Sequence record: PQ850604.1 | Reading direction: 5' to 3' (one strand) | Source: Escherichia phage Haito_Bas83 | Length of the DNA: 44,876 nt | Part shown: one piece after another, positions 1-44,792 of the stretch | Numbering within the stretch: position 1 is the first letter of the stretch | Layout of the letters: each line of letters starts with the position of its first letter | The notes under the pieces: model-generated | Told to the model about the DNA's origin: nothing | Seen by the model: only the letters and a program-made list of their open reading frames with translations | Database searches by the model: none | Program-made: the position numbers and the translations under genes

Positions 1-552
1 ATGGCAGAAATCAAAGTTAAGGGCCGTCGCGCCAAACTGGACGGACGAGTAGCAGTTACCCCGCGCCGTAAACCAGGCGAGCAAACAGAACACACCAATC
101 TTGGACCTGAGATCGAATACGGCAAGCGTCGTAAAGGCGGCAAATGTGGACGCCCGACCGACTACCGCACCGTGTATTGTGACCAGCTTCGCCGCTATTT
201 TGCCGATGCCGTAGCCTGGCAGATCAACTACTCCGACAAGGGCGCTGCGCAAGTCATCCCTCACAACAAGATGCCGACCCTCGGTCGCTTTGCCGCGGAT
301 ATTGGCGTTGGCATCGCTTGCCTGTACCGCTGGGCGCGCGCACATGAGGAGTTCGCCGAGGCGATGGCTGACGCTATGGAGTTGCAGAAAACTTTCCTGA
401 TGGAAGCTGGCGGTGTGACCATCGCGGCGGGCTTCGCTACGTTCCTGCTTAAAGCCAACCACGGCATTCGGGACGATGCTCCGCTGGATGACGACGAAGA
501 TGATAACGGCGACGTCGTTGTCGAACCTACCGGCAAAGGCCAGGGCGAATAA
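1..552 (+). CDS. terminase small subunit (putative)
   Basis: 183-aa ORF whose stop overlaps the ATG of the large terminase; acidic C-terminal tail (DDDEDDNGD); position and size typical of TerS. ATG sits at window position 1, so the 5' end may be cut. Confidence 0.55.
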   Translation: MAEIKVKGRRAKLDGRVAVTPRRKPGEQTEHTNLGPEIEYGKRRKGGKCGRPTDYRTVYCDQLRRYFADAVAWQINYSDKGAAQVIPHNKMPTLGRFAADIGVGIACLYRWARAHEEFAEAMADAMELQKTFLMEAGGVTIAAGFATFLLKANHGIRDDAPLDDDEDDNGDVVVEPTGKGQGE

Positions 553-1937
553 TGCGTAACTATGCGGCAGAACACCGCGCACTCGAACGCTCGATCGCAA
601 AGCGCAACCGACCGCCACGCCCTACGCGCGTTGCGCAGGCCGTTCGCCTGTATCAGCCTGATTGCCTACCGCACCAGGTGGAATTACTGCGCGACACGAA
701 GACCAAAATACTCGGCCTTTGTTCCGGCTTCGGTGGCGGCAAGTCATGGGTAGCGGCGCGTAAGGTAATCCAGCTTCTCACACTTAACCCTGGTCATGAT
801 GGCATCGTGACAGAACCGACTATTCCACTCCTGGTTAAAATCATGTACCCGGAGCTTGAGAAGGCTTTCGACGAGGCTGGATTCCGGTGGAAGTTCAACA
901 AGCAAGATAAAATTTACAGCGTGCTGGTGAAAGGCAAATGGACGCGCGTTATTTGTGAGTCAATGGAGAACTACACCCGCCTGATCGGGGTTAACGCCGC
1001 GTGGATTGTTGCCGATGAGTTCGACACCACGAAGCAAGACGTCGCAATGGCGGCTTACCACAAATTGCTTGGTCGTCTGCGTGCGGGTCTGGTGCGCCAG
1101 TTCGTCATCGTGTCCACGCCTGAAGGCTTCCGGGCGATGTACCAGATTTTCGAAGTGGAGAAGGATAGCCAAAAACGTTTAATCAGGGCGAAGACTACCG
1201 ACAACCACCACTTACCGGCAGACTTTATAGACACGCTGCGAAGCCAGTACCCGGCAAACCTGATTGATGCATACCTTAACGGCCTGTTTGTCAACCTTAC
1301 GTCTGGCGCGGTCTACAAGATGTTTAATCGCGAGGAGAACGCCAGCACCGAGGAAGTGCAACCGGATGACACGCTGATTATCGGTATGGACTTTAACGTC
1401 ACGAAAATGGCGGCGGTTGTGTACGTCAGACGGCAGCGCACTACCGAGAGCAAGGAGTTCCGCGACGAGATTCACGCAGTGGATGAATTTGTGGACCTGT
1501 TTGATACCCCGGCTATGATTGAGGCGATCGAAGAGCGCTACCCGGAACATTGTGCTGCCGGTCGGGTAGTCGTTTACCCGGATAGCAGTGGCAAGTCGCG
1601 TAAGACTGTTAACGCGTCGTCGTCCGATATCGCGCAACTGGAAGACGCTGGCTTCGAGGTGGAATATGACAGCGTTAACCCGCCAGTAAAAGATAGATTG
1701 ATCGCGATGAATACGATGATGTGCAACTCGAAGGGCGTGCGCCAGTATTTTGTCAACCTGGATAAATGCCCTACACTAGCGAAATGTCTGGAACAGCAGG
1801 TTTATGACCTGAAGAAAGGCGAGCCGGATAAAACCGCCGGTGTGGACCACATGAACGATGCCGCGGGCTATCCGATTGCGCACCTGTTCCCAGTGATTCG
1901 TCCAATCGCCGTTGTTCCAACCGTAGACTTCTACTAA
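552..1937 (+). CDS. terminase large subunit
   Basis: Walker A GLCSGFGGGKS and Walker B-like WIVADEFD in the N-terminal ATPase half; 461 aa; directly upstream of portal. Confidence 0.85.
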   Translation: MRNYAAEHRALERSIAKRNRPPRPTRVAQAVRLYQPDCLPHQVELLRDTKTKILGLCSGFGGGKSWVAARKVIQLLTLNPGHDGIVTEPTIPLLVKIMYPELEKAFDEAGFRWKFNKQDKIYSVLVKGKWTRVICESMENYTRLIGVNAAWIVADEFDTTKQDVAMAAYHKLLGRLRAGLVRQFVIVSTPEGFRAMYQIFEVEKDSQKRLIRAKTTDNHHLPADFIDTLRSQYPANLIDAYLNGLFVNLTSGAVYKMFNREENASTEEVQPDDTLIIGMDFNVTKMAAVVYVRRQRTTESKEFRDEIHAVDEFVDLFDTPAMIEAIEERYPEHCAAGRVVVYPDSSGKSRKTVNASSSDIAQLEDAGFEVEYDSVNPPVKDRLIAMNTMMCNSKGVRQYFVNLDKCPTLAKCLEQQVYDLKKGEPDKTAGVDHMNDAAGYPIAHLFPVIRPIAVVPTVDFY

Positions 1938-1947
1938 GGAAACGACC

Positions 1948-3468
1948 ATGACCGTTAACGTTGACAACCAGCACCCACTCTATGCGCGCATCGCGCAGGA
2001 ATGGAAGATGATCCGGGATTGTGTAGCAGGGGAGCGCGCCGTGAAGGCGTGCGGCCCTTTGTACCTGCCACACCCCGCCAGCGGCGACAATACCGACCCG
2101 AAAGCACGGGCGCGATATAAGGCGTATAAGCAACGTGCTGTATTCCTGAACGCCACCGCACGTACACTTAACGCGCTGTTAGGCGTGGCCTTCGCTAAGC
2201 CGGTAAGTCTCGACCTTTCCGGGGCGATGGCTGACCTGATTGATGACGTTGACGGCAGCGGTATGCCACTGCCGCAACTACTGCGCGGTGCTATGTCGGA
2301 AGTGCTGCAATCGGGCCGCGCGGGCTTTATGGTGGACTACGACCGCCAGGCTAACTTTGATGAACTGGGTAACGTAGTGCCGCAGACCGCCGCCGAGATG
2401 GCGTCGCACCGCCCGCTTATCCGCCTGTATACGGCAGAACAGATCATCAACTGGCGGCAGACCCACGGCGTTGATACGCTAATCGTGCTGAAGGAAACGG
2501 ACGAAATCAGCACTGAAGACCCGGACGACTTTGCAAACCACGAAGTAACGATCTGGACCGAGCTTCGCATGGTCGAAGGCAAGGCGCACGCCCGCCGCTG
2601 GTTTTACAACGCGGACACGTCCGAGGTGCAAATGGACTTGCCGCGGGGATTCACCCGCACCGACCTTGTACCACTAGTGGATGCTGCCGGTAATGCGCTT
2701 ACCCAACTCCCGTTTTGCTGGTGTGGCGCGGTGGACAACAACGCAACGCCGGACGCCGCTCCGCTGGCGGATATCGCGTCCATCAACATTAAGCACTACA
2801 ACGCCGAAGCGGACGTCGCCGAGATCGCGCACATTGTGGGCCAGCCTACCCTGGTCGCCACGGGCTTGACTCAATCATGGGCGGACAAAAACCTGAAGGG
2901 CGGGATTGCTCTCGGCGCGACTAAGGGCGTTATCCTGGGCCAGAACATGGACGCTAAACTGATTCAGGCCGAGGAGCGCAACTTGTCTGTTGCACTTTGT
3001 GAGCGCCGCGAATTGCAAATGGCTAAACTGGGCGCGGCCCTGGTTGAGAAGGGGACCGCACCGAAGACGGCAACTGAAGCGGCCTACGATGCGCAGACTG
3101 ATAACAGTATCCTGTCACTTATTGCCGGTAACGTTGAGAAGGCTTTCAACCGTGCGCTGCAAATCGTCCAGCTATTCACGGGTGATACCGCGGACCAGCG
3201 CGTAACGTTGAACAAGTTCTACACCGAAATCACGGTTGATGCGCAGCTTATGACCGCAATGATGGCGGGTGTGCAGACCGGTACGGTCCGACTGGCTGAC
3301 TTTATCAAGTGGATGATGGCGCAGGGCGTTATCGACGACTCGCAAACCGTCGAGCAGGTGGAAGACGAATTGCGAAATCAGAATCCATTGCCTCAAATGT
3401 CCCCCGATGCGGTAGAATCTACCGAAGAAGACCCGGACAAGGTAACGGACAATGGCGAGAACAATTAA
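1948..3468 (+). CDS. portal protein
   Basis: 506-aa ORF after TerL with RBS AAGGAAACGACC-ATG; acidic C-terminus; canonical position. Confidence 0.7.
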   Translation: MTVNVDNQHPLYARIAQEWKMIRDCVAGERAVKACGPLYLPHPASGDNTDPKARARYKAYKQRAVFLNATARTLNALLGVAFAKPVSLDLSGAMADLIDDVDGSGMPLPQLLRGAMSEVLQSGRAGFMVDYDRQANFDELGNVVPQTAAEMASHRPLIRLYTAEQIINWRQTHGVDTLIVLKETDEISTEDPDDFANHEVTIWTELRMVEGKAHARRWFYNADTSEVQMDLPRGFTRTDLVPLVDAAGNALTQLPFCWCGAVDNNATPDAAPLADIASINIKHYNAEADVAEIAHIVGQPTLVATGLTQSWADKNLKGGIALGATKGVILGQNMDAKLIQAEERNLSVALCERRELQMAKLGAALVEKGTAPKTATEAAYDAQTDNSILSLIAGNVEKAFNRALQIVQLFTGDTADQRVTLNKFYTEITVDAQLMTAMMAGVQTGTVRLADFIKWMMAQGVIDDSQTVEQVEDELRNQNPLPQMSPDAVESTEEDPDKVTDNGENN

Positions 3469-4555
3469 TCAACATATGGCGGATCGCATGATTCGCCGTC
3501 ACATCTTCACCCAGCGCCTGAGCAATGACCAGGCGCGGCGGGTGTTGGCTATGTGGGAGAAGTTCCGGCCCACGTTACTTGGTAAGCTGACCGAGTTACT
3601 TGATGGCAAAAAGTCCATGAATAACAAGGCACTGACCACTCTGTTAACACAAATCGACAAGACCGTCAAAACGGAACTGCGCACCGAGTTTAAAGCGCTG
3701 GCTGAAAGCCTTCAGGAGTTCGCCGACACCGAGGCTGATTATCTTGCCGATACATTAACGGCAGCGATCCAGCCAGCGGTCGCCGTACCTGCGGTTGAGG
3801 TAGTTGGCGTTGTGACCGGCGCGCAGATCGCAGCGACGGCTATGAAAAACCCATTCCAGGGAAACACCATGATGCAATGGCCTGATTCACTTTCTGAGTG
3901 GACCAGGACGCAGATCGGTAATCAGGTGCGCGCTGGATTCATCCAGGGAAAGCCGACTATGGAAATTATCGCGGACGTAAGGCGCGCGCTCGGCGGTCGT
4001 AGTGCGCAGGCAATCTCAAGCGTTGTTAAGTCCGCAGTAAACCACTATGCGGCGACCGCCCGCGAATTAATGGTAAAAGCTAATGACGATATTCTCGAAG
4101 GTCGCCAATGGTTGGCTACATTGGATACACACACATCACCTATGTGCCAGCTACGCGATCGCCTGTTTTATCCAGTTGATGTTACTCCCGACACCAAAGG
4201 AAAGCGCGGCGGGAAAGTGGTGGCTGGGACACAATATGGCGCTGGTCCGGGCAAGCTGCATTATTGCTGCCGGTCTACGGAGACGTGGAAAGTCAAAGGC
4301 ATGGAAGATTGGCCCAGTGGTAAGCGTCCGGCACTGAAGGCTGACGCGGGTCGATTGCTGAGTGAGCAGGTCGACGCGCAGACTGATTTCTTCTCATGGG
4401 TACAGCGCCAGCCGCGCCATATTCTGGAGGAATTATATGGGGTGCAGCGCGCAGACCAGATTATGCGCGGCGTGAAAGTGCCGAAGATGTTCACCGATAC
4501 TGGCGAACTAATGACTATCGCACAGATTAAAAACCGGGGGTTATGGCGTGATTAA
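3452..4555 (+). CDS. head morphogenesis protein (Mu F / SPP1 gp7-like)
   Basis: 367 aa, overlaps portal end; motif RQWLATLDTHTSPMCQLRDRLF typical of the F-like minor head protein domain. Confidence 0.65.
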   Translation: MARTINQHMADRMIRRHIFTQRLSNDQARRVLAMWEKFRPTLLGKLTELLDGKKSMNNKALTTLLTQIDKTVKTELRTEFKALAESLQEFADTEADYLADTLTAAIQPAVAVPAVEVVGVVTGAQIAATAMKNPFQGNTMMQWPDSLSEWTRTQIGNQVRAGFIQGKPTMEIIADVRRALGGRSAQAISSVVKSAVNHYAATARELMVKANDDILEGRQWLATLDTHTSPMCQLRDRLFYPVDVTPDTKGKRGGKVVAGTQYGAGPGKLHYCCRSTETWKVKGMEDWPSGKRPALKADAGRLLSEQVDAQTDFFSWVQRQPRHILEELYGVQRADQIMRGVKVPKMFTDTGELMTIAQIKNRGLWRD

Positions 4556-4856
4556 ATATGCAGCGATTGGACTGGTTATCGGTCTGGCGGTTGGATTCTG
4601 GCAGGGTGATTCCTACCGCACTGGCGTTGTGGCGAAAGCGGCGCAAGAAGCGCAAGCCGAAGCCCAACGGCAGCAAACTAAGGTTGTAGAGGGGTCGGTG
4701 AAGGCTGAGCAAGCCCGCGACGTGGAATACCGGACTATCACGAAAGAGGTTGTAAAATATGTTACGCGTCCTAACCGTCCTGATTGTAGTTTTGATGCTG
4801 AGCGCGTGCGGATCAAGCAAAGCGCCATCGACGCCGCTAACCGAGTCGGTCTATAG
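4548..4856 (+). CDS. putative i-spanin (Rz-like)
   Basis: GTG start with GGGGG RBS; N-terminal TM helix YAAIGLVIGLAVGFW then charged, helix-prone periplasmic region; a lipoprotein ORF is embedded in the +1 frame. Confidence 0.45.
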   Translation: MIKYAAIGLVIGLAVGFWQGDSYRTGVVAKAAQEAQAEAQRQQTKVVEGSVKAEQARDVEYRTITKEVVKYVTRPNRPDCSFDAERVRIKQSAIDAANRVGL

Positions 4857-4989
4857 ACCGCCTTGCACCTTTGAGAATGCCTCGGCAGATCCAGACGAGG
4901 ACTTGCTTGTTGATGTTAAAAATATGGAATGCGGGGCTAAGCTGAGGGCGCAAGTGCTGGAGTTGCAGAAAATAATTCGGGGGCCGTAA
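4759..4989 (+). CDS. putative o-spanin lipoprotein (Rz1-like)
   Basis: RBS AAGAGG; signal peptide MLRVLTVLIVVLMLSAC with lipobox LSAC; short Cys-containing mature peptide; begins inside the preceding ORF in another frame. Confidence 0.45.
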   Translation: MLRVLTVLIVVLMLSACGSSKAPSTPLTESVYRPPCTFENASADPDEDLLVDVKNMECGAKLRAQVLELQKIIRGP

Positions 4990-5002
4990 TGGCCCCCTTT
5001 TT
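4979..5002. terminator. rho-independent terminator, probably bidirectional
   Basis: GGGGGCC-GTAAT-GGCCCCC followed by TTTTT on plus; the minus-strand gene stops at 5004 and also has a U-rich tract after the hairpin. Confidence 0.6.
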
Positions 5003-5003
5003 G

Positions 5004-5768
5004 TTAGCGCGGAATACCGCAAATCTCGTTTAACGTCTTCACGTCCAGCGCTACTGCCGTTGACTTCGGCTTGTCCGGGTATGGAATGAACTGTTCAACT
5101 TCAGGCCACGCCGCGATCAGCTTCTTGTCAGTATTGTGCATATCCAGCACGCCGGTAACAGTTAGTTTGAACGCGTCATACTTCGCACGCAATTCACGGC
5201 GGGCCTTGTCGTTGCGGTCCAGTCGCTTGCAGAAATCATGATCTGCCGGGTAGTCTGCGCGACCGCGCGGGAGATATATCGGCAGCGCTTTTCCATCTTC
5301 GTCCACTTCGCACACTGACGCGAGCATAATTTCCTCGTACCCCGGTACAATATCGCTGAGGTCCGGCGCGAGCTTATTCATATATTTATCTTCCCAGTAT
5401 CCGCGATGAACGCGGTATTTACGACCGTCGCCGCTCAATGACAAGGTGCGAACGTTACCGCCTGCGTTGATTTCGAAAGTGGCGTCATAAACGCTGCCGA
5501 TACCTTTCGGGCGGTCGGTGTTATAGCTATATGTCGCCTTGTTGGTATATACGCTGACGCCGTACATCTGCGACTGGTCATCGCGGATTGATACAATATA
5601 TGCGCGTAGCTCGGCGAACGTGTGAATGCCTTTTGGCATACAGTGCAACGTGATGTCGTACGCCAGGTCGCGAGAGTCCATCATGATTTTTTTGGCTTCA
5701 GTCGCGATTTCGTGGTCGCGCAGGATGTTAGCCAGAATCTGGTTTTTAATGTCTTTTGTCAGTCTCAT
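5004..5768 (-). CDS. hypothetical protein (moron gene, function unknown)
   Basis: 254-aa intact ORF on the opposite strand inside the head module, flanked by its own promoter and terminator; no motif I can assign. Confidence 0.55.
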   Translation of the reverse strand: MRLTKDIKNQILANILRDHEIATEAKKIMMDSRDLAYDITLHCMPKGIHTFAELRAYIVSIRDDQSQMYGVSVYTNKATYSYNTDRPKGIGSVYDATFEINAGGNVRTLSLSGDGRKYRVHRGYWEDKYMNKLAPDLSDIVPGYEEIMLASVCEVDEDGKALPIYLPRGRADYPADHDFCKRLDRNDKARRELRAKYDAFKLTVTGVLDMHNTDKKLIAAWPEVEQFIPYPDKPKSTAVALDVKTLNEICGIPR

Positions 5769-5807
5769 TTTTGTGTCCTCAAGGTTGGGGCTTCCGCCCC
5801 ATTTGGT

Positions 5808-6122
5808 TTAGTTAAACTTGATGTTTCCACCGGTGGAAGTTAAGCGAGCGCATACAGCTTCAACGGCATCGACGCACATTAAATCGTTAAAGGCTTCTAC
5901 CAGGGCGTTGATGAAAGATGCCGGAACCAGGCCACAAGCCGGATTTTCGAAGGTTGCGGAATTGATTGCAGCCTTTGCGGCTTCAGTAGCGTTCATGCTC
6001 TGGCACAGATTCAGCGCTTCCGCGTTACGCATTGCGTGAAAGGTAAAAGTATTGGCTACGGCAGCTTTATTGAAACGGGTCATTGCTGCGTCTACTGGAG
6101 TTGCTACGGTCATGTTATTCAT
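5808..6122 (-). CDS. hypothetical protein (moron gene)
   Basis: Start chosen at ATG 6122 (MNNMTVATP) with RBS GAAGGAAAAC; an alternative start is at 6137; co-oriented with 5004-5768. Confidence 0.45.
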   Translation of the reverse strand: MNNMTVATPVDAAMTRFNKAAVANTFTFHAMRNAEALNLCQSMNATEAAKAAINSATFENPACGLVPASFINALVEAFNDLMCVDAVEAVCARLTSTGGNIKFN

Positions 6123-6157
6123 TTTGTTTTCCTTCATATCTCTGTTGGTGTGCAACC

Positions 6158-6187
6158 AATATAATGCGACCAATACCCGGATTGCAA
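6158..6187 (-). promoter_or_regulatory. putative sigma70-type promoter for the minus-strand moron
   Basis: TTGCAA, 18-bp spacer containing ATTGGTCGCA, then TATATT on the minus strand; a second ATTGGTTGCA copy follows. Confidence 0.3.
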
Positions 6188-6194
6188 GCGAATT

Positions 6195-6222
6195 TTGCGA
6201 TTATTTTTATCGCTGATAATAT
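6195..6222 (+). promoter_or_regulatory. putative promoter for the scaffold/capsid genes
   Basis: TTGCGA-16 bp-TAATAT; a hairpin GAGCGGG-TGG-CCCGCTC (6238-6254) lies in the leader. Confidence 0.3.
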
Positions 6223-21002: not shown

Positions 21003-21024
21003 GGGCCAGATGGCCCCTTTTTTA
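21003..21024. terminator. rho-independent terminator after J
   Basis: GGGGCC-AGAT-GGCCCC plus TTTTTT; the convergent minus-strand gene ends at 21022. Confidence 0.6.
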
Positions 21025-21987
21025 ATAGATGTTAGGGATGACTAATAGCGGGGTGGGTACGGCAATATTTTTGCCCGGCATTTGGAATTGCTGCCGTGAG
21101 TAGTTGCCAATAACGCGGTTTTTAGCGATGCGCACATTATTACCCGCCATTCGTATCCCGTTCATGCGCACATGGTTATAGCCTCCGTTGTTCTCAATGA
21201 GCGCACCGGTATATGAAAGCTGGATCAGACTATTACCGATGTGCTGGTCGCCGCCACCGATATTAATCGTTCGGTCGTAGACAAACGGCTTGTTTACCGT
21301 CGAGAACGTGACCTGCCCCTGGTTGTTAGTCATGGTGATACCGGTCCCCGGTGAGGGCGGCGTATTGTTGAATATGACCAGGTCCATATCAACGGCAGCG
21401 CCTACGTCGTCAATCCCGCCATAGGACGCATTACGGACAATGATACTTCCGCCATCGAAGCCAACCGATACGTTGCCGTCGTCCCAGCGCGCGAACGGGA
21501 CACCGCCGACTGGTAGCGGCATACTTCCGTTTACATGCACGCGCTGCGCATATCGGCACGTCATTAGCCGTGATACGTTGGATATGGCGGTGAAGTCCGT
21601 TGAGTTAGCCACCAGTAAGCCCGCATTGCGTGACCCCACCGGCAGCACTTCCATAATCACCCCGCCCCATGTTGGAAGCCCGCTGTATGCGTTATAGGCG
21701 TCCTCACCGCGCAAGGTGATTCCGCCATCCCCGTTACGTTGTATCGACGTCACATAAAACGGGTCTGGCAAGACCAGGGTCTGGTCGAATACCTCAATCA
21801 CTTCAACCGGATTAGTTAGGGCAACGACCAGTTCGGACCCTGGTGTCAGCGGTGTGTTAATGGACAGCGTCTTGTCAGACTGACAGCGCTGATTAAAGGT
21901 AGTGCAAAACGACGGAGCGCGAAGGCCCGCGGTTATCTCCATGACAGGTCTACCGTCGTTGTAGTCGATTAATATTCCGGCACCCAT
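21022..21987 (-). CDS. putative receptor-binding protein (opposite strand, downstream of J)
   Basis: 321 aa from ATG 21987 (RBS GGGAGTGG); Gly/Asn-rich with repetitive strand-like segments; translationally coupled to the upstream lipoprotein gene; location matches separately encoded RBP loci of siphoviruses. Confidence 0.35.
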   Translation of the reverse strand: MGAGILIDYNDGRPVMEITAGLRAPSFCTTFNQRCQSDKTLSINTPLTPGSELVVALTNPVEVIEVFDQTLVLPDPFYVTSIQRNGDGGITLRGEDAYNAYSGLPTWGGVIMEVLPVGSRNAGLLVANSTDFTAISNVSRLMTCRYAQRVHVNGSMPLPVGGVPFARWDDGNVSVGFDGGSIIVRNASYGGIDDVGAAVDMDLVIFNNTPPSPGTGITMTNNQGQVTFSTVNKPFVYDRTINIGGGDQHIGNSLIQLSYTGALIENNGGYNHVRMNGIRMAGNNVRIAKNRVIGNYSRQQFQMPGKNIAVPTPLLVIPNIY

Positions 21988-21989
21988 TA

Positions 21990-22211
21990 TTACCACTCCC
22001 GTGATTTAACTGATACAGTACCGGAAAAATTGCCGTCGCTATCGGCAGACAGGCCAGTGAAGCGCATGTCAACATCTCCGGCAGGGACTTTTTGCCCGTC
22101 AACGTAACGCAACATGCAGCTTCCGTAAGCCACCGTAATGCAATCACCGTTGTTGCGTTCTACAGCACAACCGGACAAAAGGACCGCACAAATCATAATT
22201 AAAGTTTTCAT
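21990..22211 (-). CDS. small lipoprotein, superinfection-exclusion candidate (Cor/Llp-like)
   Basis: Start at 22211 with RBS AGGAG; signal peptide MKTLIMICAVLLSGC with lipobox LSGC; 73 aa; adjacent to receptor-binding genes. Confidence 0.5.
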   Translation of the reverse strand: MKTLIMICAVLLSGCAVERNNGDCITVAYGSCMLRYVDGQKVPAGDVDMRFTGLSADSDGNFSGTVSVKSREW

Positions 22212-22291
22212 GTTATCATCTCCTATATTTGGTTGAGTTTTAGTATTACACCGCTCAACCAAGAATGCAACCAATTTATGAGGATTCAGCT

Positions 22292-24070
22292 ATGGCAGCG
22301 GGTACACTATCCGTAACGAATAACAGCAAGGCGGTTGTGGGCGTCGGCACAACGCTTACCGCGCTGAAGGCTGGCGACTTCCTGTCGCTGGTAGTGGGGC
22401 AAGTCCCTTACACTGTCGCTATTGCATCCGTAGAAAGCGACACCGCGCTTACGCTGGTGCTGCCGTTCGATGGCCCAACGGCAACCGGCCTCGCATGGGA
22501 TAGCGTGGCGCGCGATACCATGTCCCTTGCAACGATGGGTGTAACCGTCCAGGCGCAGAAAGCGCTCCGTATGCTTATCGCGGACGAAAACAACTGGCGT
22601 GCAATCTTCGGCGACGCTGAGGAGATCACTGTCACGCTCCCGAACGGGCAAGTAATGCAGGGTATGTCATGGGGCTATCTGTCGCAATTGCTCAAGCAAG
22701 TTGACCCCGTAGAGATGCGCAACCTGCAACAACAAGCCGCCGCATCGGAAGCCGCCGCGCAGGGATACCGGAACGAGGCAGAAGGCTTCAAGACTGATAC
22801 GCAGGCGATCCACGACGCCACCGATCAGATTAAGACTGATACGCAGGCGATCCACGACGCCACCAACACCATCAAGACGCAGACCAACCAGATTAAGACT
22901 GATACGCAGGCCATCAAGGACGAGACTGACCAGATTAAGACGGATACTGGCGCTATTCGCGATCAGGCCAATACAGCGAAGACGGACGCGCAAGCCGCCC
23001 GTGATGCCGCGCGGGGATACCGGAACGAGGCCGAACAATTCAAGAATGAGATCGACCCGTCGAAATTGCTGGCAAAGGCCAGCAACCTTAGCGACGTTGC
23101 AGACGTTGCAGAAGCGCGCGACAACTTAGGTATCGGGCCGACGGATACACTTAATATTGGTGGCCTGGTAACGTCCGGCGGTATCTCCGCGGGTCGAAAC
23201 ACGTGGGACGGGTCAAACTGGGGTGGCCAGGCGATTAACATCTCGCTAGCCATCCTATCACCAGACGGAAACTCAACACCCGGCTTATATGTGCGCAAAA
23301 GCAACGGCGAAAACGGATATGCGACTGAATGGCTGTATTATGAGAACACGAACGCCTGGGCGACGAACGCGCGAGTTGTCAGCTATCAATTCCGTTCCCC
23401 GAAGGGGCCTATGGGTTATAGTCAGTTGTGGTCTGAAGCTGCGGTACGAGTGGACCCGTACAACGGGCAGCTTAACGCGGAAAACTATCAGTCGTTAGTC
23501 GCGGGGGCGGCTGCGACGCAAGGCCACGGATTTGCGGGCGGTGTTTCGTTCGGGCTTATGACCACCGGCAGCAACAACTGGCCCCGGGCGCAGATCTCGA
23601 TCGGCACACAGGACCGTGACGCCGCGGGGAATATGGGGCAGCAGATGCATTTTCGCTTTGATGACCAGGGGCGGATCTCTTACAACGGGCCGCAAGGCAC
23701 GGGGTCATTCCAGCAAGTGCCCGCATCGGACCGCAACCTGAAGCATGATATTGCCGATGATGCCAGCAGCACCGCCTACGACAACATCAAGGCGATGCGA
23801 TTCCGCACGTTCATATTCAACAACGACGAACAAGAACGGCAGCGCCGCGGGATTATTGCGCAGGAAGTGGAAGAAATCGACCCGCTGTATGTGAAGCACC
23901 GAGAGTATAACAACCATGAGTTAAACGGGCCATTGATGCACCAGCTTGAACTGGACACAACGCCGCTGCTACTCGACACTATGCGCGCGTTGCAGGATAC
24001 GATTAAGCAGGTGGAGGAGTTGAAGGCCGAGATCGCAGCTATGAAACAAGTGGAGGAGTTGAAGAAATAA
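22292..24070 (+). CDS. side tail fiber with C-terminal intramolecular chaperone (peptidase S74-like) domain
   Basis: Start MAAGTLSVTN with RBS GAGGA (track ORF starts 27 nt earlier); tandem 14-aa repeats (TDTQAIHDATDQIK); C-terminal ...SDRNLKHDIAD...MRFRTFIFNNDEQERQRRGIIAQEVEEIDPLYV... resembles the autocleaving chaperone domain of endosialidase and T5 L-shaped fibers. Confidence 0.7.
   Translation: MAAGTLSVTNNSKAVVGVGTTLTALKAGDFLSLVVGQVPYTVAIASVESDTALTLVLPFDGPTATGLAWDSVARDTMSLATMGVTVQAQKALRMLIADENNWRAIFGDAEEITVTLPNGQVMQGMSWGYLSQLLKQVDPVEMRNLQQQAAASEAAAQGYRNEAEGFKTDTQAIHDATDQIKTDTQAIHDATNTIKTQTNQIKTDTQAIKDETDQIKTDTGAIRDQANTAKTDAQAARDAARGYRNEAEQFKNEIDPSKLLAKASNLSDVADVAEARDNLGIGPTDTLNIGGLVTSGGISAGRNTWDGSNWGGQAINISLAILSPDGNSTPGLYVRKSNGENGYATEWLYYENTNAWATNARVVSYQFRSPKGPMGYSQLWSEAAVRVDPYNGQLNAENYQSLVAGAAATQGHGFAGGVSFGLMTTGSNNWPRAQISIGTQDRDAAGNMGQQMHFRFDDQGRISYNGPQGTGSFQQVPASDRNLKHDIADDASSTAYDNIKAMRFRTFIFNNDEQERQRRGIIAQEVEEIDPLYVKHREYNNHELNGPLMHQLELDTTPLLLDTMRALQDTIKQVEELKAEIAAMKQVEELKK
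22791..22979 (+). repeat. in-frame tandem ~42-bp repeats within the fiber gene
   Basis: AAGACTGATACGCAGGCGATCCACGACGCCACC... repeated about four times with variation. Confidence 0.6.
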
Positions 24071-41418: not shown

Positions 41419-41561
41419 GCGCGACTATCCGTGATATGCTCATGCATAACCGCTTTGAGATAGGCGGGCGAGTGTTCTGCAATTACTTCGTGGCGCGTGC
41501 TTGGGCGCGCCATATTGGACAACCAGAGGGGGCAATACAATGCTATACATCCTCGCGATAA
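41415..41561 (+). CDS. small hypothetical protein (48 aa)
   Basis: ATG overlaps the upstream TGA; coding status uncertain. Confidence 0.2.
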   Translation: MSATIRDMLMHNRFEIGGRVFCNYFVARAWARHIGQPEGAIQCYTSSR

Positions 41562-41641
41562 TGTGCGGCGGCAGTCTTGCGGCCCTGGTCTTGTTGGCTG
41601 GGATTATCGGCCTGATTAAATACTTATGGTGCAAATTATGA
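41540..41641 (+). CDS. small membrane peptide (33 aa)
   Basis: RBS GAGGGGG; hydrophobic MLYILAIMCGGSLAALVLLAGIIGLIKYLW. Confidence 0.3.
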   Translation: MLYILAIMCGGSLAALVLLAGIIGLIKYLWCKL

Positions 41642-41925
41642 TACACGATCTGATATTTTGGTTTGGTTTGGGGTGTGCGTCGCTCTTTGCTATGGTGCTG
41701 GCGCTGCTGATTTGGATATTCCTGGTATGGCCCGCGGTGGAAGCAGCCAGCATTACCCGCATGACGTTCAAGATATACAAGCGCCGCGGCATATCGGAAC
41801 ACCCGACCAGGTTGCGCATGTGGTGGCTTTGGTATCTGGATATGATTGGCGGTCGAAGGTTTGAGGCCATCCGGTCATCCGGGTGGGAATGGAAAGGCGT
41901 CGGCAAGTGGTCCATTTTCGATTAA
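41638..41925 (+). CDS. membrane protein (putative)
   Basis: ATG overlaps the upstream stop (ATGA); one or two TM helices; Trp-rich. Confidence 0.4.
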   Translation: MIHDLIFWFGLGCASLFAMVLALLIWIFLVWPAVEAASITRMTFKIYKRRGISEHPTRLRMWWLWYLDMIGGRRFEAIRSSGWEWKGVGKWSIFD

Positions 41926-41942: not shown

Positions 41943-41977
41943 AGTCCCAGTGAGCTAAAACTTACTGGGACTTTTTT
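41943..41977 (+). terminator. terminator hairpin immediately upstream of the lysis genes
   Basis: AGTCCCAGT-12 nt loop-ACTGGGACT plus TTTTTT, directly followed by ATG 41978. Confidence 0.5.
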
Positions 41978-42268
41978 ATGGATAAGCTAAACGAGTGGTT
42001 ATTCGCCCTCGCGTGTCTTGCAGGTGGCTTCGTTGGCGCTCGCATTCACGGTGAGGCAACGAAAGGGCCGCTAAATTTTGTGTTGTTTATCGTGGTCGGC
42101 TTCTTGTGCGCCGTGTTTGGGGCACCAGCTATTGCCGAGTGGTTTAATCTAACCGGACCGAGAACTGTCGCCGGTCTTGGCTTCGTAACGGCAATCTTCT
42201 GGATGCCGGTCGCCGCCAGAATCCGTGAAGCAATCTCCTCGTTCCGTCTGCCGGGGAATGCAAAATGA
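41978..42268 (+). CDS. holin (putative, three TM segments)
   Basis: 96 aa with three hydrophobic segments and a charged C-terminus; immediately upstream of the endolysin. Confidence 0.5.
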   Translation: MDKLNEWLFALACLAGGFVGARIHGEATKGPLNFVLFIVVGFLCAVFGAPAIAEWFNLTGPRTVAGLGFVTAIFWMPVAARIREAISSFRLPGNAK

Positions 42269-42504
42269 TTATCGCCATCCTGTTATTAGTGATCGGGGCT
42301 TCGTCGCTGTATAACGTATACGCGCCATCCGTCCAGGATGGCATTTGCGGACGGGTGCTCTACCTGCTTACAGCAATGACCTGTATTATTGGCCTGATGC
42401 AAACGGGGGACGTATCGAATACAGTCTGGTCCGTGCTAATCTGGCTATTCGCATTACGCACACTGCGTAATGCTGTTTTAAATGGGGTAAAACATGCGAT
42501 TTAG
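42265..42504 (+). CDS. second small membrane protein of lysis cassette (holin/antiholin-like)
   Basis: 79 aa, two hydrophobic helices; overlaps both neighbours. Confidence 0.4.
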   Translation: MIIAILLLVIGASSLYNVYAPSVQDGICGRVLYLLTAMTCIIGLMQTGDVSNTVWSVLIWLFALRTLRNAVLNGVKHAI

Positions 42505-42985
42505 CGACAACGGTCTAAGATTTACGGCAGCGTGGGAGTCGTTCAGCCCAGTGCCGTATTTCGCGACTAAGAAGGAGCAGGCCCGCGGCTTGTACACCTG
42601 GGGCTACGGTCATACTGGCACTAATCCGCCACAGAGCATTACCCGCGTGGAAGCGCTGGAGCTACTCAAGCGTGATGTGGCGTATGCCGAGAACTGGGTG
42701 AACAAGTACGCACACCCGAGCATCAATCAGGCGCAATTCGACGCGCTGGTGGATCTGGTAATCAATGCCGGTCAAGGTCCGATCGTACCGGATAACATTG
42801 CCAATGACTTCGATGACGCGGTGCGCATGGGTGATTGGGCCAAAGTCCGTGCTACGCTGCCGCAGTTCCGCAAGCAAGGCGGTGAAGTGCTCAAGGGCCT
42901 GGTACGTCGTGCAATCGGCAGACAGGCGCTATTCGATGGTAAGCAGTGGGACGTTGCCGAGAAAATCGGTCGTAACGCGGCATAA
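42494..42985 (+). CDS. endolysin (phage lysozyme family)
   Basis: 163 aa; N-terminal region FTAAWESFSPVPY...GLYTWGYGHTG resembles lysozyme-like endolysins. Confidence 0.7.
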   Translation: MRFSDNGLRFTAAWESFSPVPYFATKKEQARGLYTWGYGHTGTNPPQSITRVEALELLKRDVAYAENWVNKYAHPSINQAQFDALVDLVINAGQGPIVPDNIANDFDDAVRMGDWAKVRATLPQFRKQGGEVLKGLVRRAIGRQALFDGKQWDVAEKIGRNAA

Positions 42986-43001
42986 TAAGAGGAAACACAG
43001 T

Positions 43002-43169
43002 ATGTTAAAAAGTATTCTTGATCATAACGCGGACGCGCTTGCCGCACTGGCTAAAACGGAAGACCCAGGCGCGCGCGCCATTATCGCGGACACTATCAGT
43101 CATGCGGGTGTCTTTGACGCGAAGCTGCCAAGCCCGCCACCGCCGGAAGAACCAGACCCAGCGGCATAA
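43002..43169 (+). CDS. small hypothetical protein (55 aa)
   Basis: RBS AAGAGGAAACACAGT-ATG; Pro-rich acidic C-terminus; the longer track ORF 42765-43169 overlaps the endolysin and is rejected. Confidence 0.35.
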   Translation: MLKSILDHNADALAALAKTEDPGARAIIADTISHAGVFDAKLPSPPPPEEPDPAA

Positions 43170-43175
43170 ACACGA

Positions 43176-43201
43176 AGCCCGGTTAATTCCGGGCTTTTTA
43201 T
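43176..43201 (+). terminator. rho-independent terminator
   Basis: AAGCCCGG-TTAATT-CCGGGCTT plus TTTTT. Confidence 0.6.
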
Positions 43202-43205
43202 TGCT

Positions 43206-43235
43206 TGACTTGCAACCAACATAAGGGCCATACTG
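43206..43235 (+). promoter_or_regulatory. putative promoter with two TGCAACCAA motifs
   Basis: TTGACT, 18-bp spacer containing TGCAACCAAC, CATACT, followed by TGCAACCAAT. Confidence 0.3.
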
Positions 43236-44766: not shown

Positions 44767-44792
44767 AGCCCGCCGATTTGGTGGGCTTTTTT
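44767..44792 (+). terminator. rho-independent terminator
   Basis: AGCCCGCC-GATTT-GGTGGGCT (one G-U pair) plus TTTTTT. Confidence 0.55.

Follow-up and report, generated by a model that had tools for sequence, protein, structure and literature searches.

Predicted overlapped spanin genes of the Jersey family beside the head genes of Escherichia phage Haito_Bas83

We present here a candidate two-component spanin in Escherichia phage Haito_Bas83 (sequence record PQ850604.1), encoded by two overlapping plus-strand open reading frames (ORFs) at positions 4548 to 4856 and 4759 to 4989. The window, meaning the whole stretch of DNA analyzed, is 44,876 nucleotides long. The two ORFs very probably encode the i-spanin and o-spanin of a Dhillonvirus, belonging to the overlapped "Jersey" spanin family, a reading to which we give a probability of about 0.93. 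The assignment of function rests on homology and gene architecture. With it, the predicted lysis gene set of the phage would be complete: holin, holin, endolysin, i-spanin, and o-spanin. For this phage group, both the pair and its location among the head genes are on record already, so that the assignment, while correct, is ordinary.

Over positions 3400 to 6200, the sequence shares 99.9% identity with Escherichia phage RuthEpting_Bas85 (PQ850624.1). The GenBank entry for that phage is a circular sequence of 44,889 bp whose coordinates coincide with those of the window at this end, and the window therefore amounts to very nearly a complete genome. Bas85 was placed in the genus Dhillonvirus in the BASEL completion paper (PMC11990801). 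The 44,889-bp record exceeds the window by 13 bp. The two agree in coordinates to at least position 6200, and the lysis cassette begins at 41978 in the window and at 41991 in the record, a shift of 13 that points to a small indel between 6200 and 41978. The analysis directly observed how the ORFs are laid out, their sorting signals, the families to which they belong, their conservation, and their genomic surroundings, all described below.

The i-spanin gene (4548 to 4856, plus strand) starts with GTG and encodes 102 aa with the N terminus MIKYAAIGLVIGLAVGFWQG; it was identified from the ORF and its sequence, a match to phrog_2536, and orthology to HK578_005. The sole hydrophobic segment of the protein, residues ~4 to 19 (YAAIGLVIGLAVGFWQ), is an N-terminal transmembrane (TM) anchor. 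This segment is Gly rich, and the Kyte-Doolittle score over 19 residues peaks at 1.52, at residue 1, which is borderline and just below the usual TM cutoff of 1.6. The curated i-spanin of phage HK578 has the same N terminus. Lys3 lies N-terminal of the TM segment, and a charged domain of 80 aa lies C-terminal of it. Borderline hydropathy aside, this is the layout of an i-spanin, a small type II protein with a single N-terminal TM segment and a periplasmic C-terminal domain. The periplasmic domain contains the conserved motif ITKEVVKYVTRPNRPDCSFDAERVRIKQ and a lone cysteine, Cys80 (nucleotides 4785 to 4787), which is invariant in the alignment together with V68, K70, Y71, P75, R77, and F82. A low-confidence single-sequence AlphaFold2 model (mean pLDDT, 57) consists of a helix at residues 5 to 72, a break at 73 to 83 around the conserved PNRPDC motif, and a second helix at 84 to 99. 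For the short Jersey subfamily, Kongari et al. (2018; PMC6139136) predicted a pair of helices joined by a linker that contains one beta element. The model agrees with that two-helix-plus-linker description, an agreement given little weight at this pLDDT. The coiled-coil table in the supplement of the same paper lists the HK578 i-spanin without a predicted coiled coil.

The o-spanin gene (4759 to 4989, plus strand) starts with ATG and encodes 76 aa; it was identified from the ORF and its sequence, matches to phrog_5672 and phrog_1267, and the alignment. The N terminus of the product is MLRVLTVLIVVLMLSAC, also written MLRVLTVLIVVLMLSACGSS. A signal peptide of residues 1 to 16, read from the sequence, runs through the lipobox as MLRVLTVLIVVLM-LSAC-G. 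The lipobox LSAC occupies residues 14 to 17 (nucleotides 4798 to 4809), and the +2 residue is Gly, not the Asp of inner-membrane retention, so that the protein has the SPII signal expected of an o-spanin. The predicted mature protein is 60 aa long and contains 6 prolines. Besides the lipidated cysteine, it has Cys36 and Cys58; the residues invariant in the alignment are C17, C36, D46, E47, and C58.

Two-component spanin genes are embedded, overlapped, or separated, with the o-spanin gene in the +1 frame or immediately downstream; those described here are of the overlapped type, sharing 98 nt, and the o-spanin is read in the +1 frame with respect to the i-spanin. The TM-protein ORF and the +1-frame lipoprotein ORF that had been described from the letters alone are thus both present. 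An SD-like GGGGG run (4536 to 4540, plus strand) precedes the i-spanin GTG at 4548 within the start region 4536 to 4555. An SD-like AGAGG (4745 to 4749, plus strand) lies 9 nt 5′ of the o-spanin ATG, within the i-spanin coding sequence; both signals were read from the sequence.

The arrangement of a TM protein and a lipoprotein ORF in the +1 frame was found in 9 of 9 relatives, at amino acid identities down to 33% for the i-spanin and 26% for the o-spanin, and tblastn hits to the i-spanin came from 610 phage records and those to the o-spanin from 642, of which 580 reached ≥80% coverage. The nine relatives and the large number of records argue that the arrangement is not due to chance. The notion that the lipoprotein ORF is a chance open frame, with the 102-aa protein alone being real, draws on several GenBank records that annotate only one of the two genes, but it is hardly credible against the number of o-spanin records, an SD sequence of the ORF's own, the 133 of its 231 nt that lie beyond the i-spanin stop, and an ORF, signal peptide, lipobox, and two further cysteines that are kept at 26 to 47% o-spanin identity.

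Both products match spanin families, as the sequence-only reading had proposed should be checked: the 102-aa protein matches phrog_2536, "Rz-like spanin" (E value, 5.7e-34), and the 76-aa protein matches phrog_5672 (E value, 1.2e-25) and phrog_1267 (E value, 2.5e-12), both also Rz-like spanin, and the HK578 orthologues are curated as spanins. In Pfam-A, no family reaches the cutoff for either protein, the best for the i-spanin being DUF6919 at 15.9 bits, with nothing for the o-spanin. The overlapped Jersey family of Kongari et al. (PMC6139136) includes the i- and o-spanins of HK578, SSL-2009a, EP23, JL1, EK99P-1, and SO-1. The shorter subfamily, EP23 to SO-1, is described there as having two helices joined by a linker, an extreme C terminus that is variable and unstructured, and conserved o-spanin cysteines. 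Both proteins of the present pair are similar to a listed member through HK578 (89% identity for the i-spanin and 80% for the o-spanin). Identities are 42% and 47%, respectively, to the pair of Jerseyvirus Shelanagig and 36% and 45% to a Kagunavirus pair. Seven aligned homologues share the i-spanin residue C80 and the o-spanin residues C17, C36, and C58; C80, C36, and C58 are invariant across the Dhillonvirus, Jerseyvirus, Kagunavirus, Klebsiella phage, and Vibrio phage homologues. They match the conserved cysteines reported for the Jersey family (PMC6139136).

The supplement of PMC6139136 gives HK578_005 as 109 aa, with the start MIKYAAIG and a GGGGG SD sequence, an o-spanin of 76 aa, and an overlap of 119 nt. 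The pair described here has the same start codon, SD sequence, +1 overlap, cysteines, and position after the head-morphogenesis gene. Its i-spanin is 102 rather than 109 aa long, and its overlap is 98 rather than 119 nt, because point substitutions have brought about an earlier stop in the variable extreme C terminus. An alignment of the 442-nt spanin locus from six Dhillonviruses is free of indels, with ~31% of its sites variable. We considered whether the 102-aa form is a truncated pseudogene of the 109-aa form and rejected this, since KarlBarth and LM40P1 have i-spanins of the same length, the locus lacks indels, and the C terminus is documented as variable. Both products had been called short for spanins; they are indeed small, but they fall within the range that has been published, which includes overlapped i-spanins of 84 to 91 aa and o-spanins of 65 to 67 aa (tables of PMC6139136), and small size is documented for the short Jersey subfamily.

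The lysis cassette lies at 41978 to 42985 on the plus strand and was identified by profile matches. It consists of a holin gene (41978 to 42268; phrog_2359), a second holin gene (42265 to 42504; phrog_2508), and an endolysin gene (42494 to 42985; PF00959 lysozyme, without an N-terminal TM segment), all on the plus strand. These holins and this endolysin are the proteins with which the spanin pair would act. Neither in the cassette nor after it was a spanin found, in keeping with the sequence-only reading, and a genome-wide scan of ORFs with a lipobox gave no second spanin-like pair. Two ORFs near the cassette were considered as hidden spanins and rejected: that at 42765 to 43169 lacks a TM segment and a lipobox and coincides with no candidate of the lipobox scan, and a small annotated ORF at ~43102 to 43224 likewise lacks both features. 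As nothing spanin-like occurs elsewhere, 4548 to 4989 is the only spanin candidate in the genome. The proposal that an overlapped Rz/Rz1-type pair completes a cassette lacking spanins is supported by the family matches, the homologues in other lysis cassettes described below, and the HK578 curation.

Immediately upstream of the holins are two small membrane-protein ORFs on the plus strand, at 41501 to 41641 (46 aa) and 41626 to 41925 (99 aa; phrog_2531), and a strong terminator-like hairpin (41943 to 41972) separates them from the holins. The lipobox scan produced one other good candidate, at 21990 to 22211 on the minus strand, encoding a putative 73-aa lipoprotein (MKTLIMICAVLLSGC) that matches phrog_4281 and, weakly and at its N terminus, the Cor superinfection-exclusion family. 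It has no paired spanin-type TM ORF, adjoins 21022 to 21996 (minus strand) and a tail-fiber gene at 22265 to 24070 (plus strand), and lies upstream of a gene for a 324-aa phrog_1265 protein ("membrane protein," moron category). This region, next to the genes for receptor binding, may form a module for exclusion or receptor masking.

The spanin pair lies beside the head genes, as had been noted: portal and MuF-like head-morphogenesis genes are upstream, and scaffold and major capsid genes follow downstream after two minus-strand ORFs. These two genes, at 5004 to 5768 (phrog_1965) and 5808 to 6137/6173 (phrog_24635), are flanked by hairpins and stand between the spanin pair and the scaffold gene. 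The slot varies among Dhillonviruses, with one gene in KarlBarth and a different 140-aa gene in HK578, and looks like a hotspot for morons or accessory genes.

A distance of ~37 kb from the lysis cassette had been stated for the pair. That figure is correct on the linearized window only; the separation arises because a circular record was linearized, and on the circular map, the i-spanin start is ~6.4 kb from the endolysin stop, with the pair downstream on the same strand. An exonuclease gene, terS, terL, the portal gene, and the MuF-like gene lie between them. The placement had also been considered unusual, which does not hold. The pair is located between the MuF-like and the scaffold and major capsid genes in the Dhillonvirus phages HK578, YD-2008.s, JLBYU60, and KarlBarth, and the same placement occurs in Jerseyvirus Shelanagig and Kagunavirus fKuEco01; the position is therefore conserved across the three genera, and the spanins of T4 are also located away from its holin and endolysin genes. 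The literature searched for spanin placement (Dhillonvirus and Jerseyvirus papers and the Shelanagig announcement) yielded routine annotation statements only. Spanins outside lysis cassettes are a documented, lineage-wide arrangement and not an anomaly.

Homologues of the pair are also found in lysis cassettes. In Klebsiella phage 2 LV-2017, the lysozyme gene is followed directly by a homologous spanin pair, and in Vibrio phage pYD38-A, the order is endolysin, holin, and spanin; the context in these phages ties the family to lysis. The head-module position and apparent cotranscription with the terminase, portal, and MuF genes might suggest that both products are head assembly or virion components, but this is very improbable given a TM anchor and a lipobox that are unsuited to cytoplasmic capsid assembly, homologues in lysis cassettes far from head genes, and the result for homology to virion components, which the sequence-only reading had named as grounds for abandoning the spanin assignment: no structural-protein family was matched in PHROG or Pfam.

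Phage lipoproteins with exclusion functions exist. It is accordingly conceivable, if improbable, that a pair located outside the lysis cassette has another envelope function, namely, superinfection exclusion or receptor masking like that of Cor or T5 Llp, and that the outer membrane is disrupted by a disruptin-type peptide or not at all. Both products, however, match spanin families and not those of Cor or Llp, homologous pairs lie directly 3′ of the endolysin gene in other phages, and a separate Cor-like lipoprotein candidate is already present beside the tail-fiber genes, at 21990 to 22211. The obligatory combination of a TM protein and a +1-frame lipoprotein is, moreover, the signature of spanins (PMC6139136). 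The spanin reading is preferred to both of these alternatives.

The i-spanin GTG overlaps the final 8 nt of the head-morphogenesis gene (stop codon, 4553 to 4555), an overlap compatible with translational coupling of the i-spanin to that gene. A terminator-like, GC-rich hairpin with a T run (4979 to 5002, plus strand, with the hairpin itself listed at 4979 to 4997; a consensus match only) overlaps the o-spanin stop codon and reads as a hairpin on the minus strand too, and HK578 has annotated terminators at the equivalent place. The other plus-strand terminator-like hairpins, likewise consensus matches only, are at 41943 to 41972, 43174 to 43197, and 44767 to 44787, and a consensus scan of positions 1 to 4600 found none on the plus strand. 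The hairpin at 4979 to 5002 is therefore the apparent end, as judged by consensus matches, of a plus-strand unit comprising terS, terL, the portal gene, the MuF-like gene, and the i- and o-spanin genes. The distribution of these hairpins, with none in 1 to 4600, suggests that the spanins end the packaging/portal unit and are not part of the lysis transcript. Their expression would then come with the terminase-portal-head morphogenesis unit, as its final genes, and not from the lysis cassette. Whether the conserved placement is functional rather than historical, with spanin dosage or timing tied to head assembly and uncoupled from holin and endolysin expression, is a further matter, and we regard a functional role as unlikely. 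In its favor are the position of the pair as the last cistrons, the start overlapping the MuF-like stop, and the terminator-like hairpins between the pair and the holin-endolysin cassette. If true, it would represent a regulatory layout unlike that of lysis-cassette spanins, common to Dhillonvirus and Guernseyvirinae.

The model for the mechanism is lambda Rz/Rz1, as summarized in PMC6139136, and from it and the features above, we infer topology, complex formation, disulfides, and the membrane-disruption step. The TM helix of the i-spanin would anchor the protein in the inner membrane, with a periplasmic domain that is probably mostly helical. The o-spanin would be processed at its lipobox and acquire a lipid on Cys17; lacking Asp at +2, it would be sorted to the outer membrane. 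By analogy, the C-terminal regions of the two proteins would bind to each other, and the resulting complex would span the periplasm. The conserved cysteines may form intermolecular disulfides, giving disulfide-linked dimers; at least one periplasmic cysteine, as homotypic intermolecular disulfides require, is present, and the disulfides themselves are predicted. The holins and endolysin encoded at 41978 to 42985 would first destroy the peptidoglycan, and the spanin complex would then disrupt the outer membrane, probably by fusion with the inner membrane, as the last step of lysis.

Annotation of the pair differs among records. The RuthEpting_Bas85 record labels 4548 to 4856 as Bas85_0005, "hypothetical protein," and 4759 to 4989 as Bas85_0006, "Rz-like spanin"; on the reading given here, Bas85_0005 encodes the i-spanin that pairs with the annotated product of Bas85_0006. 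Among the sister BASEL phages, KarlBarth and PaulFeyerabend have "i-spanin" and "o-spanin" at identical coordinates, with the PaulFeyerabend product annotated as o-spanin being 100% identical to the 76-aa protein, and TheodorHerzl has both spanin labels at the i-spanin position. One relative's annotation labels the i-spanin "exported protein," many Dhillonvirus records annotate one spanin gene or neither, and the HK578 RefSeq record lacks an o-spanin coding sequence. The value of the present assignment is mainly one of annotation hygiene, together with the reminder that distances on a linearized circular genome mislead. The Jersey family has representatives in more than 600 phage records, and the literature searched yielded no published complementation or knockout experiment on any Jersey-family or Dhillonvirus spanin.

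The pair resembles lambda Rz/Rz1 in combining an inner-membrane type II protein with an outer-membrane lipoprotein encoded in the +1 frame, in its periplasmic cysteines and small proline-containing o-spanin, and, by analogy, in its presumed action as a third lysis step after holin and endolysin. It differs in that the genes are overlapped, not fully embedded, and are not beside those of the holin and endolysin. Lambda Rz is also longer, at 153 aa versus 102 aa for the i-spanin. No Pfam Rz or Rz1 family was matched, and hence there is no detectable sequence relationship to the lambda proteins. PseT.3 and PseT.2 of T4 are similarly small (117 and 83 aa [PMC6139136]) and form a two-component spanin whose genes, like those described here, are at a distance from those for the holin (t) and endolysin (e), showing that spanin genes need not be linked to a lysis cassette; they differ in being separated, not overlapped, and in belonging to another sequence family. 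More distant homologues are the overlapped pairs in Klebsiella phage 2 LV-2017 and Vibrio phage pYD38-A, which are 33 to 38% identical in the i-spanin and 26 to 35% identical in the o-spanin and share the VVKYV..P.R..C.F motif and the invariant cysteines. Those pairs are located in canonical lysis cassettes, whereas the pair in Haito_Bas83 appears to end a packaging/portal operon.
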